Shown here piece after piece: positions 12,426 to 41,274 of a stretch of 64,000 nt of DNA. Under the pieces are notes generated by a model. The model ran no database searches. It saw only the letters and a list, made by a program, of their open reading frames with translations, and was not told where the DNA came from. Each line of letters opens with the position of its first letter. Position 1 is the stretch's first letter. The stretch lies in assembly GCF_001677475.2 (NCBI RefSeq), contig NZ_CP015229.1. One strand, 5' to 3'. The stretch comes from Escherichia coli (lineage in GTDB: Bacteria > Pseudomonadota > Gammaproteobacteria > Enterobacterales > Enterobacteriaceae). Made by a program: the position numbers and the translations under genes.

Positions 12426-13406
12426 ATGGCTTTTACACCTTTTCCTCCCCGTCAGCCTACGGCTTCTGCCCGTTTACCGCTGACGCTGATGACGCTTGAT
12501 GACTGGGCGCTTGCCACCATTACTGGCGCGGACAGCGAAAAATATATGCAGGGTCAGGTGACAGCAGATGTCAGCCAGATGACAGAAAATCAGCATCTGC
12601 TCGCCGCCCATTGCGACGCCAAAGGTAAAATGTGGAGCAATTTACGTCTGTTCCGCGACGGCGATGGCTTTGCATGGATTGAACGGCGCAGCGTGCGTGA
12701 ACCGCAGCTGACTGAACTGAAAAAATATGCGGTGTTCTCTAAAGTGACCATCGCGCCAGACGACGAGCGTGTGCTGCTTGGTGTTGCCGGTTTTCAGGCG
12801 CGCGCCGCGCTGGCCAATCTCTTTAGTGAACTGCCTTCGAAAGAAAAACAGGTAGTTAAAGAAGGCGCGACCACTTTGCTATGGTTTGAACACCCGGCAG
12901 AACGTTTCCTGATCGTAACCGATGAAGCTACTGCCAATATGCTGACCGATAAACTGCGCGGTGAAGCGGAACTGAACAATAGCCAACAGTGGCTGGCATT
13001 AAACATTGAAGCGGGTTTCCCGGTGATTGATGCCGCGAACAGCGGGCAGTTTATCCCACAGGCGACCAATCTCCAGGCGCTGGGCGGTATCAGCTTTAAG
13101 AAAGGCTGTTATACCGGACAAGAGATGGTGGCGCGAGCAAAATTCCGTGGTGCCAATAAACGTGCGCTCTGGTTGCTGGCAGGTAGTGCCAGCCGACTGC
13201 CGGAAGCTGGTGAAGATTTAGAGCTGAAAATGGGCGAGAACTGGCGTCGCACCGGTACGGTGCTGGCTGCGGTAAAACTGGAAGATGGTCAGGTCGTGGT
13301 ACAGGTCGTCATGAATAACGATATGGAACCGGACAGCATCTTCCGCGTGCGTGACGATGCGAATACATTGCATATCGAGCCGCTGCCGTATTCGCTCGAA
13401 GAGTAA
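12426..13406 (+). CDS. ygfZ: folate-binding Fe-S cluster repair/tRNA modification protein YgfZ, 326 aa
   Basis: ORF 12426..13406; GcvT-like fold sequence with KGCYTGQE motif. Confidence 0.9.
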
Positions 13407-13413
13407 ATCTCTG

Positions 13414-13448
13414 TGTCGCATCAGGCATTTATCGCCTGATGCGACACG
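13414..13448. terminator. long perfect hairpin between convergent ygfZ and yqfA
   Basis: GTGTCGCATCAGGC / GCCTGATGCGACAC, 14-bp perfect stem with a 7-nt loop; arms contain the REP-like GCCTGATGCG motif. Confidence 0.6.
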
Positions 13449-13482
13449 GGTGTGTCTTTTCAGGCCTACAAAGGCACACCCA

Positions 13483-14634: not shown

Positions 14635-16095
<1,461 letters not shown>

Positions 16096-16106
16096 GTAGA
16101 TGAAGT

Positions 16107-16139
16107 ACCGGATGCAATGCTTGTTGCGTTGCATCCGGT
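16107..16139. terminator. hairpin between convergent bglA and ygfF
   Basis: ACCGGATGCAA ... TTGCATCCGGT, 11-bp stem. Confidence 0.55.
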
Positions 16140-16156
16140 CAGACAACTTTCCTGCT

Positions 16157-16900
16157 TTATTTCCCGCCCGCCAAATCGATAAAACTTCCCGTGACATAAG
16201 AGGCTTTATCACTAAGCAGCCAGACAATGGCCTGCGCGACCTCTTCCGCCTGTCCGCCGCGCTGCATGGGGATGTTCGACTTAACGCGATCGACGCGTCC
16301 GGGTTCACCACCGCTGGCATGCATTTCGGTATAAATAAACCCAGGCCGCACGCCGTTAACGCGAATGCCCTGCGCGGCGACTTCCAGCGATAATCCGGTG
16401 GTTAACGTATCAATCGCCCCTTTCGATGCCGCATAATCAACGTATTCTCCGGGTGATCCCAGCCTGGCTGCTACCGAAGAAACATTGACGATAGCGCCGC
16501 CACTGCCGCCGTTTTTCAGCGCCATGCGTTTTACCGCCTCGCGGCAGCAGAGAAAATAACCCGTCACGTTGGTGGAAAGTACTTGGTTGATTCGCTCTGC
16601 CGTGAGATTTTCCACTGTGCATTGGGTAAACAATATTCCTGCGTTATTGACCAGCGCGGCTAACGGTTCATCACGCTGATCGATTGCTGTAAACATTGCG
16701 ATAACCTGATTTTCGTCGCTGATATCCGCCTGGAGCACAAATGCCTTGCCACCGGCTTGCGTTATTAAGTTCACCACTTCCTGCGCCGCGTGGAGGTTTT
16801 GCTGATAATTAACCGCCACCGTATACCCTTCTTTTACCAGCAGCAGCGCAGTTGCCCGCCCAATGCCGCGACTACCACCGGTCACAAGTGCTATAGCCAT
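16157..16900 (-). CDS. ygfF: short-chain dehydrogenase/reductase, 247 aa
   Basis: ORF 16157..16900; TGGSRGIG Rossmann motif and YAASK catalytic motif. Confidence 0.9.
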   Translation of the reverse strand: MAIALVTGGSRGIGRATALLLVKEGYTVAVNYQQNLHAAQEVVNLITQAGGKAFVLQADISDENQVIAMFTAIDQRDEPLAALVNNAGILFTQCTVENLTAERINQVLSTNVTGYFLCCREAVKRMALKNGGSGGAIVNVSSVAARLGSPGEYVDYAASKGAIDTLTTGLSLEVAAQGIRVNGVRPGFIYTEMHASGGEPGRVDRVKSNIPMQRGGQAEEVAQAIVWLLSDKASYVTGSFIDLAGGK

Positions 16901-16916
16901 TTGTTTTCCCCAAAAA

Positions 16917-17106
16917 TAAAGGCGCCGAAGCGCCTTTCAAATTGATGACAAAGTGCGTTTTTATGCCGGATGCGGCGTGAACGCCTTATCCAGCCTACAA
17001 GATCGTGCAAATTCAATACATTGCAGAGACCATGTAGGCCTGATAAACGAAGTGCATCAGGCAATGTTGAGTTTGTCATCAGCCTCAAAGGCGCCGAAGC
17101 GCCTTT
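16917..17106. repeat. REP pair (BIME/RIP-like): two inverted REP units with a linker, bracketed by duplicated hairpin AAAGGCGCCGAAGCGCCTTT
   Basis: REP unit TGCCGGATGCGGCGTGAACGCCTTATCCAGCCTAC (about 16964-16998) and inverted unit TGCCTGATGCACTTCGTTTATCAGGCCTAC (about 17033-17064); identical 20-bp hairpins at 16918-16937 and 17087-17106. Confidence 0.8.
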
Positions 17107-17128
17107 AGAAGATAGTCGAATCAGTAAA

Positions 17129-20002
17129 TTACTGGTATTCGCTAATCGGTACGCAGGAGCAGAACAGGTTACGGTCGCCGTAAACATCATCCAGACGTTT
17201 CACTGTTGGCCAGTATTTGTCTGCCACGCCTGCCGGGAATACTGCAACGTCACGGCTGTACGGATGCGCCCACTCGGCGACCAGTTCGCTCTGAATGTGC
17301 GGCGCGTTCACCAGCGGGTTATCTTCCAGCGGCCAGACACCAGCTTTCACCTGTTCAATTTCTGCGCGGATAGCCAGCATAGCGTCGATAAAGCGATCCA
17401 GTTCCACTTTGCTTTCAGATTCAGTCGGTTCAACCATCAGCGTACCCGCCACCGGGAACGACATCGTCGGCGCGTGGAAACCGTAGTCGATCAGGCGCTT
17501 GGCAATATCCAGCTCGCTGATGCCGGTTTCTTCTTTCAGCGGGCGAATATCGAGAATACATTCGTGCGCCACGCGACCGTCGCGACCGGTATACAGCACC
17601 GGGAAGGCATCCTGCAGGCGGCTGGCAATATAGTTGGCGTTAAGAATTGCCACCTGGCTTGCTTTTTTCAGCCCTTCTGCGCCCATCATGCGGATGTACA
17701 TCCAGCTGATTGGCAGAATGGATGCGCTACCGAACGGTGCCGCAGAAACCGCGCCCTGACGGGTTAACATGCCTTCGATTTGCACCACGCTATGACCCGG
17801 TACAAACGGTGCCAGATGCGCTTTCACACCGATCGGTCCCATACCCGGACCACCACCGCCGTGCGGAATGCAGAAAGTTTTATGCAGGTTAAGGTGCGAA
17901 ACATCCGCGCCAATAAAGCCCGGCGAAGTGATACCAACCTGAGCGTTCATGTTCGCGCCATCAAGGTAAACCTGACCACCGAACTGATGCACGACTTCAC
18001 ACACCTCACGGATCGTTTCTTCATACACGCCGTGGGTGGAAGGATAGGTCACCATGATACAGGAGAGGTTATCGCCCGCCTGTTCCGCTTTCGCGCGCAG
18101 ATCAGTCAGATCGATGTTGCCGTTTTTATCACACGCCACAACCACCACCTGCATTCCTGCCATATGTGCAGAAGCGGGGTTAGTTCCGTGCGCAGAAGCC
18201 GGGATCAGGCAGATATCGCGATGCCCTTCGTTGCGGCTTTCATGATAATGACGAATCGCCAGCAGGCCCGCATATTCGCCCTGTGCGCCAGAGTTCGGCT
18301 GCATACAAACGGCGTCGTAACCGGTCAGTTTCACCAGCCAGTCAGCCAACTGCGCAATCATCTGCTGATAACCTTCGGCCTGTTCCGGCGGGCAGAACGG
18401 GTGCAGTTCGGCAAATTCCGGCCAGGTGATTGGGATCATCTCGGCGGCGGCGTTCAGTTTCATGGTGCAGGAACCCAGCGGGATCATCGCCTGATTCAGC
18501 GCCAGATCTTTACGCTCCAGCGAGTGCATATAGCGCATCATTTCGGTTTCGCTGTGGTAGCGATTAAACACCGGATGAGTGAGGATTTCGTCGTCGCGCA
18601 GCATCGCAGGCTGAATAGAGCGGCTGTCGTGAGCCACGTCTTTGTCCAGCGTGTCGATCTCCAGCCCGTGGTTATCGCCCAGCAGCACGCTGAAAAGCTG
18701 CATCACGTTTTCACGCGTGGTGGTTTCATCAAGGGTGATCCCAACCGCGTTCAGGATATCGCTACGCAGGTTGATTTCAGCCGCTTCGGCACGCGTCAGT
18801 ACGCCCGCTTTGTCGGCCACTTCCACACACAAGGTGTCGAAATAGTGCGCATGACGCAGTTTCAGACCTTTTTGTTGCAGGCCCGCCGCCAGGATATCGG
18901 TCAGACGGTGGATGCGGTTAGCGATACGTTTCAGGCCCACCGGGCCGTGATAAACGGCATACAGGCTGGCGATGTTTGCCAGCAGTACCTGGGAAGTACA
19001 AATGTTGGAGTTCGCTTTCTCACGGCGAATATGTTGCTCGCGAGTCTGCATCGCCATGCGCAGCGCGGTATTGCCAGCTGCATCTTTCGATACACCGATA
19101 ATACGGCCCGGCATTGAGCGTTTGTATTCATCTTTCGCCGCAAAGAATGCCGCGTGTGGGCCTCCGTAGCCCATCGGCACGCCGAAACGTTGCGCCGAAC
19201 CAAAGACAATATCCGCGCCCTGTTTACCCGGCGCAGTTAACAGCACCAGCGCCATAATATCGGCGGCAACGCTGACCACGATTTTGCGTGATTTCAGTTC
19301 GCTGATAAGCGCAGTATAGTCGTGGATTTCACCGGTAGTGCCGACCTGCTGTAACAGCACGCCGAAGACGTCCTGATGATCGAGCACTTTTTGCGCGTCA
19401 TCGACAATCACTTCAAAACCAAAGGTTTCGGCACGAGTACGGACCACATCCAGCGTTTGCGGATGCACATCGGAAGCCACGAAGAAGCGGTTGGCATTTT
19501 TCAGTTTGCTGACGCGTTTCGCCATCGCCATTGCTTCGGCGGCAGCAGTGGCTTCGTCAAGAAGAGAAGCCGATGCCATATCCAGCCCGGTTAAATCCAG
19601 CGTTACCTGCTGGAAGTTGAGCAGTGCTTCAAGGCGGCCCTGGGAGACTTCAGGTTGATACGGAGTATACGCGGTATACCAGCCCGGATTTTCCAGCATG
19701 TTACGCAGGATAACCGGCGGTAACTGCACGGCGGTGTACCCCATGCCGATGTAAGACGTGAAGCGTTTATTGCGACTGGCAATAGCCTTGAGTTCTGCCA
19801 GTGCGGCGTATTCGGTCGCCGGTGCGCCAACCTGCGGCGGAGTCGCAAGCTGAATATCTTTCGGCACAATCTGGCCGGTCAGCGCGTTTAACGATTGTGC
19901 GCCAACGGCATTCAGCATTTCTTGCTGTTGCGCGGCGTCCGGTCCGATATGGCGTTCAATAAAAGCGCCGCTGTTTTCAAGCTGGCTTAACGTCTGTGTC
20001 AT
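17129..20002 (-). CDS. gcvP: glycine dehydrogenase (decarboxylating), glycine cleavage P protein, 957 aa
   Basis: ORF 17129..20086; start at [11 protein letters not shown] (ATG 20002..20000) gives the K-12 length. Confidence 0.95.
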
Positions 20003-20120
20003 GAGCGATGGTTCCTGAAACGTGCAGTGAATTGTGAACCTCTCTCCTTGCGAAGAGAGTGAGGGTGAGGCGTAAAAGTTCCTCACCCTGATCCTCTCCC
20101 GCAGAAGAGGAATAAAGCCG

Positions 20121-40918: not shown

Positions 40919-41050
40919 TCAATATTCCTTTTCAACTGACTCAAAATGGAGAAATACACTCCGCCGCCTTATGACGGGCAGTCTGACAAGGGTAAACAAT
41001 AAAGCATAATTTTGCCAAATAGATCACAGATTTCTCATCTGTATCACCTT

Positions 41051-41250
41051 GCTTTTGGCGAAAAATCCCCGCAGAGCGGGGCTCAGACAGATATCAATGT
41101 GCGCTTTGTCATGCCGGATGCGGCGTGAACGCCTTATCCGGCCTACAAAAACCTGCAAATTCAATATATTGCAGGATACGTGTAGGCCTGATAAGCGTAG
41201 CGCATCAGGCAACTTTTCTTTTGGCGAAAAAAAGACCCGCAGAGCGGGCC
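41051..41250. repeat. REP pair (BIME/RIP-like) bracketed by a ~30-bp direct repeat containing a small hairpin
   Basis: REP unit TGCCGGATGCGGCGTGAACGCCTTATCCGGCCTAC and inverted unit TGCCTGATGCGCTACGCTTATCAGGCCTAC; flanks TTTTGGCGAAAAA..CCCGCAGAGCGGG at 41054-41083 and 41220-41250. Confidence 0.8.
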
Positions 41251-41274
41251 TTGAGATAAGCAGAAAGGAATATC

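Follow-up and report, generated by a model that had tools for sequence, protein, structure and literature searches.

A stretch of 64,000 nucleotides from Escherichia coli (contig NZ_CP015229.1 of assembly GCF_001677475.2), hereafter the window, carries a bacterial interspersed mosaic element (BIME) of the BIME-1 family in the spacer between ygfF and gcvP. The element was very probably inserted at the hairpin of an intrinsic terminator, duplicating this hairpin as its target. The spacer comprised 228 bp and contained the sequence AAAGGCGCCGAAGCGCCTTT twice, at positions 16918-16937 and 17087-17106. The two copies formed a direct repeat of 100% identity with a spacing of 169 nt. No third copy was found in the window when one mismatch and any loop were allowed, and a match was present in 0 of 100 shuffled sequences. 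Allele comparison indicates that the ancestral state was one hairpin and that BIME-1 and the second hairpin copy were gained together. A sequence-only reading of the window had described identical hairpins on both sides of a pair of repetitive extragenic palindromic (REP) units between ygfF and gcvP, and had proposed that a REP element was inserted into a pre-existing terminator with duplication of the target. The exact repeats were confirmed, the flanking genes were verified by open reading frames and homologous E. coli records, and the proposed insertion was supported by empty sites in Citrobacter, Kluyvera and 18 E. coli genomes.

The insert and its probable position in the transcript

The segment between the hairpins (16938-17086) was 149 bp long and both of its ends abutted the hairpin copies exactly. 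Judged by its composition, it is a complete BIME-1, also called RIB or RIP, and thus more than a REP pair. Of the earlier description as a REP pair with a linker, the Y-REP, linker and Z-REP were recovered, and the extent had to be enlarged to the complete 149-bp element. On the plus strand, it comprised a left external motif caaattGATGACAAAGTGCGTTTTTAT (16938-16964), a Y-REP palindromic unit with its CCTAC end facing the linker (16965-16998), the L linker of 35 nt (16999-17033) with TGCAAATTCAATACATTGCA at 17007-17026, a Z-REP in inverted orientation with GTAGG at its start (17034-17063) and a right external motif ATGTTGAGTTTGTCATCAGCCTC (17064-17086), which ended exactly at the proximal hairpin. 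The family consensus outside the REPs, derived from 25 distinct loci, was tcagATTgtTGaCAAAGTGCgCtTTGTTcAT left of Y and ATTTTgCgTTTGTCatCAgtcTca right of Z. On the right side, the sequence TTTGTCATCAG was present with at most two mismatches in 14 of these 25 loci. The left end of the consensus matched the reverse complement of its right end at about 13 of 16 positions, and the two ends in the window matched at 9 of 9. The left motif held GATGACAAA (16944-16952) and the right motif TTTGTCATC (17072-17080), each located 6 nt inside a hairpin copy. Both belonged to an inverted repeat with 36-nt arms that were 78% complementary, while the 6-nt spacers between the 20-mers and the inverted arms matched at two of six positions. 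The inverted pair inside the hairpins was thereby found as the sequence-only reading had given it and, according to the consensus, is part of the family-wide BIME-1 end motifs.

The element consisted of one Y and one inverted Z1 REP with GTAG/CTAC facing the linker, and showed the conserved long L linker, recognised by a pattern common to at least 120 metagenome stretches and by Rfam ES036. The Y-L-Z unit was present once, not in tandem, where a transcription unit has its 3' end, and conserved external motifs lay on both sides (16938-16964 and 17064-17086). The element began 43 nt downstream of the gcvP stop codon (minus strand), the right external motif counted. It thus resembles the BIME-1/RIB/RIP elements of E. 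coli (Gilson 1991; Boccard & Prentki 1993; Oppenheim 1993), as summarised in Ton-Hoang 2012 (PMC3333891), which are described as inverted Y and Z1 REPs around a conserved long linker, often with a site for integration host factor (IHF), occurring as single copies at a transcription unit's 3' end and polymorphic in presence and absence between strains. The L linker of BIME-1 is reported to hold the IHF site (Ton-Hoang 2012, PMC3333891), and the window linker contains a putative one by sequence similarity. The Rfam model ES036/CssrF matched the linker at 16999-17041 with 40.8 bits at a gathering score of 37.6. All Rfam matches on BIME-1 were to repeat-derived 'sRNA' families and lay on the linker and REP; the ES036 family (CssrF sRNA) appears to be the repeat linker itself.

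On the gcvP strand, only the distal hairpin copy (16918-16937, minus strand; 8-bp stem, UUCG loop) was followed by a T run (AAAGGCGCTTCGGCGCCTTT ATTTTTGGGG), as the sequence-only reading had noted, and it was the sole terminator-like site that the terminator scan reported there. An intrinsic terminator consists of a GC-rich stem-loop and a U-tract. The distal copy has both, with AUUUUU as its tract, whereas the proximal copy (17087-17106, minus strand; repeat and terminator scans) is followed by GAGGCUG and lacks a U-tract. The A-TTTTT-GGGG tail after the distal hairpin (16908-16917, minus strand; terminator-like scan) recurs as the flank of the single hairpin in empty sites. To the original terminator it belongs as the U-tract, and it doubles as the ygfF leader. 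The ygfF start codon (16898-16900, minus strand) lies 17 nt downstream of the distal hairpin foot on the minus strand. On the other side, a 22-nt spacer and the gcvP stop codon (17129-17131), together 17107-17131 on the minus strand, form the flank that is the same in empty sites. The genes themselves were located at 16157-16900 (ygfF, minus strand; open reading frame and annotation in homologous E. coli records) and 17129-20086 (gcvP, minus strand).

These features are consistent with the distal hairpin as the operative gcvTHP terminator. Because the proximal hairpin lacks a U-tract, read-through into BIME-1 is expected. Transcription of gcvTHP probably runs through BIME-1 and stops at the distal copy, which would make the element part of the gcvP 3' untranslated region. 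The 241-nt RNA was predicted to fold into a single long hairpin of -95.8 kcal/mol (z = -8.2), within which pairing between the two 20-mers is possible. One promoter-like site was detected over the distal hairpin (TTGAAA, 16 nt, TATTTT), showing no excess over shuffled sequences (mean 0.8). For annotation, this means that the hairpin nearest to a gene's end may be a copy severed from its U-tract and that the real terminator may be located about 170 bp further, with BIME-1 then lying in the 3' untranslated region.

Empty and occupied alleles of the ygfF-gcvP spacer

Empty sites were found in Citrobacter sp. FP75, Citrobacter sp. R56, C. youngae and Kluyvera genomosp. 1. They read from the ygfF ATG through cccaaaaaat, a single AAAGGCGCCGAAGCGCCTTT and aaaagatagt to the gcvP stop. 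The left flank of the single hairpin was that of the distal copy in the window and the right flank that of the proximal copy. Phytobacter massiliensis showed the same flank on the ygfF side and a single hairpin, with a different sequence on the other side. A predicted empty site of 51 nt, in which one hairpin was placed between the left and right flanks seen in the window, was matched end to end in 18 of 5,426 complete RefSeq E. coli genomes. The comparison with loci lacking REPs that the sequence-only reading had named as a check thereby yielded the single hairpin with both window flanks. Among the empty strains, 2020CK-00188 (record L140) had the identical 20-mer and 2013C-4282 (L139) a CAAA loop. 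The ygfF of 2020CK-00188 was 99.2% identical to that of the occupied strain 2017-02-2CC (L006), and its YgfF protein accession was the same as in the occupied strains L002 and L010. Because of this identity and the shared accession, the alleles represent, at the sequence level, a clean presence/absence difference of 169-172 bp on a near-identical background.

The occupied form was detected in eight complete E. coli genomes and in one further genome with an IS621 insertion, among the same 5,426. In this latter strain, 2017-02-2CC, IS621 (IS110 family) was located inside the Z-REP (L006, 1440-2725), between ..ATGTAG and GCCTGATAA.., and this insertion point fits the REP target reported for IS621. 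The window's ygfF-gcvP region was about 94-95% identical to the best of the 5,426 genomes. The exact YgfF protein of the window, deposited as E. coli, was present on at least 24 public contigs, and the 228-bp spacer was identical in all seven that were checked. Two hairpins without a REP between them, the case that would have separated the duplication from the REPs, were absent among the E. coli matches listed, in searches not designed specifically for that arrangement. The number of 20-mer copies per E. coli genome never exceeded three.

Most ygfF-bearing E. coli, including K-12, showed one intact hairpin by gcvP, with TTTTT behind it on the gcvP strand. In B2 alleles, too, TTTTT came after the gcvP-proximal hairpin. 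Both BIME-1 end motifs were recognisable in the K-12 spacer (L001, 401-667) as GAGATTGCTAACAAA.. and ..TTTGTCATCTGACTA. In K-12-type alleles, the place of the REP core was taken by a GC-rich palindromic repeat that is dispersed over a median of 15 places per genome and that we take to be boxC. An abstract of Bachellier from 1997 reportedly speaks of 'excisions of a whole BIME-1' and of boxC insertions. At the distal-hairpin position of K-12, 12 of 21 nt matched the hairpin, and 28 of 42 matched in an ungapped alignment including the adjoining end motif. The K-12-type allele would thus carry a decayed distal copy and a proximal copy that acquired a U5 tail. The fates of the alleles differ accordingly, with both copies intact in the window and, in K-12, a proximal copy with a U5 tail and an apparently decayed distal one.

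The gene ygfF was absent from this position in about 2,370 of the 5,426 genomes (B2 and others), leaving bglA and gcvP as convergent neighbours. In these genomes, SCU-172, LF82 and FDAARGOS_144 among them, the two genes were separated by a degenerate BIME-1 in opposite orientation, in the order Z-L-Y, end motif and single hairpin. Likewise, ygfF was missing next to gcvP in the single E. albertii genome recovered and in a divergent 'E. coli' genome, both of which showed an opposite-orientation BIME-1 with a single hairpin. This form may have arisen by inversion and deletion or by independent insertion.

Hairpin duplication at other BIME-1 loci

The only other BIME-1 in the window was located in the fbaA-mscS spacer (41046-41251), flanked by a direct repeat of 35-37 bp that was 87-90% identical. 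The distal copy of the fbaA terminator, TTGCTTTTGGCGAAAAATCCCCGCAGAGCGGGGCT, occupied 41049-41083 (minus strand) and the proximal copy 41215-41251 (minus strand). Between them, at 41084-41211 on the plus strand, lay a left external motif (41084-41112) and the Y-L-Z unit (41113-41211). An empty allele with one terminator copy, the proximal one, was present in ST131 and FEX669.

BIME-1 loci were also drawn from metagenomes by the linker motif, giving at least 120 stretches, of which 86 were usable and represented 25 distinct loci. The alignment score of left versus right flank reached 25 or more at 7 of the 25 loci, compared with a mean of 14.6, a 99th percentile of 22 and a maximum of 26 for mismatched pairs. 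By inspection, about 10 of the 25 loci had the same locus-specific GC hairpin directly outside both element ends. At these loci, the left copy ended 27-32 nt before Y and the right copy started 3-25 nt after Z, and the repeat copies lay within 0-3 nt of the conserved element ends at about 10 independent loci. A strong hairpin abutted at least one element end at 18 of the 25 loci and both ends at 9, compared with 2 of 25 at control positions displaced outwards by 40 or 70 nt. The outer flanks kept an A-tract at the left copy and a T-tract at the right copy; insertion would therefore part the first copy from its U-tract, while the far copy keeps it.

Each of the four loci tested, gcvP-ygfF, fbaA-mscS, pitA-uspB and rlmC-artJ, had empty alleles. 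The sequences of the pitA and rlmC loci were read directly. Their empty alleles were found as predicted, at pitA-uspB as a single match of 108 bp versus a split match of 281 bp, and at rlmC-artJ in one genome 100% identical to the prediction. The size gain of the occupied over the empty allele was 166-173 bp at each of the four loci. The duplicated segment ranged across loci from 18 to 37 bp and followed the extent of the hairpin. Judging from these alignments, hairpin duplication is a recurrent property of BIME-1 and not peculiar to the gcvP locus. At gcvP, where both copies read CGAA on the plus strand, and likewise at fbaA (AGA/AGA) and metagenome locus L176 (GTT/GTT), the hairpin loops had a direct orientation.

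Duplicated hairpin pairs, for example at fbaA, L176 and L162, often differed at paired stem positions or solely in the loop. Examples were a C-G versus T-A closing pair in L176 and A.C versus C-G at fbaA. Such differences suggest that, once the hairpin was duplicated, pairing was selected for or template switches corrected the palindrome. At one metagenome locus with two variants (L167 and L245), the right-end hairpin GGTCAGATTgaaATCTGACC contained TCAGATT, the first bases of the BIME-1 left end, and the left side had no hairpin.

Mechanism, alternative origins and related elements

Across these footprints, as read from the alignments, it is the hairpin and no constant stagger that determines how long the target duplication is. 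Because the duplicated segment covers the palindrome and changes in length with it, staggered nicks at the feet of the hairpin are proposed. Opposite strands of the palindromic target would receive one nick each, at either foot of the extruded hairpin or cruciform, the element would be joined to the staggered ends, and gap filling would copy the whole palindrome onto both sides. This specific staggered-nicking model is doubtful. A REP-associated tyrosine transposase (RAYT) and a host structure-specific nuclease are candidate enzymes. The BIME-1 ends on the two strands were ..TCTCA and ..TCTGA, giving TC↓T on both. The RuvC consensus (A/T)TT↓(G/C) was compared with the junctions by eye and did not fit.

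The hairpin sequence itself is widespread. The exact 20-mer AAAGGCGCCGAAGCGCCTTT was found in at least 120 stretches from diverse bacteria, including Pseudomonas, Shewanella, Paraburkholderia, Flavobacteriales and Leptospira, in a contig scan whose sample did not include E. fergusonii and Salmonella. About 0.5 chance matches were expected for a 20-mer, by our own estimate from database size and pattern length. The 20-mer looks like a convergently recurring, near-ideal terminator with a UUCG loop. Because it recurs across unrelated bacteria, identity of the two copies alone is weak evidence for duplication, and the case therefore rests on the comparison with empty alleles. In nearly every E. 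coli genome, the hairpin also terminates mrcA, giving a median of two places per genome (gcvP and mrcA). The E. coli nudE-mrcA spacer (L009, 1437-1535) showed the order Z-L-Y, taaacaagtgcacTTTGTCAgcaaactg and hairpin, with no second copy. At mrcA of Citrobacter (L013, L034 and L039), the hairpin was present alone, without BIME-1, and E. albertii (L015) retained only a remnant of the Y-REP and end motif.

The two hairpins at gcvP might be independent convergent terminators, the 20-mer (A3, GGCGC, UUCG, GCGCC, U3) being near-optimal. Its exact recurrence in diverse bacteria and its use at mrcA in both E. coli and Citrobacter are in line with this. However, the empty site has exactly one copy, whose flanks come from different copies in the window, ruling out chance or convergence as the origin. 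The same arrangement recurs at other BIME-1 loci with unrelated hairpin sequences, and the proximal copy has no U-tract and hence is not an optimised terminator. Of the alternatives, convergence is the least probable. A tandem duplication of the terminator could instead have come first, for example by replication slippage, with BIME-1 entering later between the copies or preferring such a gap. Hairpins are hot spots for slippage. In E. coli, direct repeats are commonly seen around variable segments, with slippage as the usual explanation (PMC2884548). This order of events would leave hairpin-hairpin alleles as an intermediate, but none was seen among the matches listed, in which an E. coli genome held at most three copies of the 20-mer, whereas all four tested loci showed one-hairpin and hairpin-BIME-hairpin alleles. 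Two coincident events would be needed per locus, as the copies abut the element ends within 0-3 nt at about 10 loci, and prior slippage is improbable.

Two further routes start from the element's own symmetry and from the mrcA locus. In fold-back template switching, the hairpin and TTTGTCATC would have been copied in inverted form across the REP pair, the palindromic stem mimicking a direct repeat. The 78% complementary 36-nt arms and the stable single hairpin of the 241-nt transcript (-95.8 kcal/mol, z = -8.2) would suit this route. An inverted copy would show TTCG versus CGAA, but both copies read CGAA on the plus strand, and the loops at fbaA and L176 were also direct, on which ground palindrome extension was rejected. 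The 6-nt spacers match at only two of six positions, and GATGACAAA and TTTGTCATC are family-wide end motifs present at loci with other hairpins, making fold-back copying extremely improbable. Import from the nudE-mrcA spacer by ectopic recombination or gene conversion, with the shared hairpin as homology, could draw on the presence of the 20-mer at both gcvP and mrcA in the median E. coli genome, on the Z-L-Y, taaacaagtgcacTTTGTCAgcaaactg, hairpin order at mrcA and on a spacer between TTTGTCA and the hairpin that matched the window's left side at five of eight positions. With a single hairpin and no right external motif, however, the mrcA spacer cannot supply both junctions, and Citrobacter has the hairpin at both loci without BIME-1; the spacer was rejected as donor for these reasons. 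The similarity is explained by the shared BIME-1 consensus, and other loci have the same architecture with hairpins that occur nowhere else, leaving import highly improbable.

Insertion with duplication of the hairpin also has observations against it. At fbaA, the duplication ran 17 nt beyond the hairpin, so that the proposed cuts would not always fall at both feet. About 7 of the 25 BIME-1 loci had no adjacent hairpin and about 9 had one on one side only. No transposition event was observed, the direction of change being one that we infer, and within E. coli some of the empty alleles could have arisen secondarily, by precise deletion between the 20-bp repeats. The 20-mer recurs convergently and also adjoins a BIME-1 at mrcA. 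Finally, because the Y1 HUH transposase class is reported to leave no target duplication (PMC3333891, PMC2817692), the known REP-associated enzyme, the obvious candidate, does not predict the footprint.

Among known systems, REPINs are REP doublets mobilised by RAYT, an IS200/IS605-related Y1 HUH transposase (Nunvar 2010, PMC2817692; Bertels & Rainey 2011, PMC3116915; Ton-Hoang 2012, PMC3333891). The enzyme both binds REP hairpins and cleaves CT dinucleotides of single-stranded DNA on either side of a neighbouring hairpin (PMC3333891). The RAYT gene tnpA-REP, between yafL and fhiA, is positioned outside the 64-kb window. Like a REPIN, the insert is a non-autonomous inverted REP doublet that folds as a long hairpin, with GTAG/CTAC by the stems and the conserved GTAG 5' of the stem (defining features after PMC3333891). 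Unlike REPINs, whose IS200/IS605-type insertion proceeds without target duplication (PMC3333891, PMC2817692), it is associated with a duplication of 18-37 bp, seen here as a 20-bp direct repeat with a precise empty site and likewise at three further loci. MITEs (miniature inverted-repeat transposable elements) of bacteria, such as Correia and ERIC elements (Delihas 2011, PMC3184786), share the size of about 150 bp, terminal inverted repeats, a flanking direct target repeat and precise empty sites with it, as well as, for some families, an IHF site within the element. The terminal inverted repeats were found here as well, but the short, fixed-length duplication that a DDE transposase sets in MITEs was not; its place is taken by 18-37 bp matching the locus-specific palindrome. 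We know of no cognate transposase with matching BIME-1 ends, the search not having extended to insertion sequences with CAGATTG..CAGTCTC ends. Class C bacterial group II introns reportedly insert just after intrinsic terminator hairpins (work by Robart, Seo and Zimmerly from 2007). They resemble BIME-1 in using terminator stem-loops as structural targets and landing in harmless 3' regions, and differ from it as retroelements that encode their own reverse transcriptase and do not duplicate the hairpin. The REP-targeting insertion sequences IS1397, ISKpn1 and IS621/IS110 family (Tobes & Pareja 2006, PMC1525189) also use extragenic palindromes as structure- or sequence-specific insertion sites. 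For these the REP is the target, whereas here the REP-containing element is the insert and the terminator the target.

According to the recent literature (Ton-Hoang 2012; Nunvar 2010; Delihas 2011; Bertels & Rainey 2011; Touzain 2010; Park 2021; two preprints), REP and BIME sequences lack MITE signatures or target duplications. No description of hairpin-length repeats at REP or BIME was found in this recent literature, a set that does not include the papers of the 1990s (Bachellier 1997; Boccard & Prentki 1993; Gilson 1991). The inverted-repeat end motifs and the duplicated terminator hairpin set the element apart from published BIME-1 descriptions within the same recent scope. The locus is a member of a known family with an apparently under-described property, and possibly this property had truly gone unrecognised. 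Tentatively, BIME-1, and by extension E. coli REP doublets, may spread by targeting terminator stem-loops and duplicating the entire hairpin of 18-37 bp, an unrecognised mode that the 'peel and paste' Y1 model does not predict. The multiplication of REP and BIME has been an open question since the 1980s, the transposase homologue having been found in 2010-2012. Three things make up the footprint described here: the 150-bp unit, which is conserved and has inverted ends; a terminator hairpin particular to the locus, of which each side bears a copy; and, in other strains, empty alleles that are precise. If correctly read, it would define the target, polarity and cut positions of a reaction that, to our knowledge, has never been seen: a GC-rich hairpin as target, cuts at or near its feet on opposite strands, and element ends CAGATTG... 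and ...CAGTCTC. It would also explain the harmless siting in 3' untranslated regions, with the distal hairpin keeping the U-tract.

Further REP sequences were present in the window. A REP-like palindrome, CCGGATGCAatgcttgttgcgtTGCATCCGG, was located at 16103-16140 between the convergent 3' ends of bglA (14638-16095, plus strand; open reading frame and homologous E. coli records) and ygfF, and the equivalent position in ygfF-less strains held a different REP. A tail-to-tail Z-type REP pair, GTCGCATCAGGCatttatcGCCTGATGCGAC..., belonging to a different BIME type, was present at 13405-13475 of the window.

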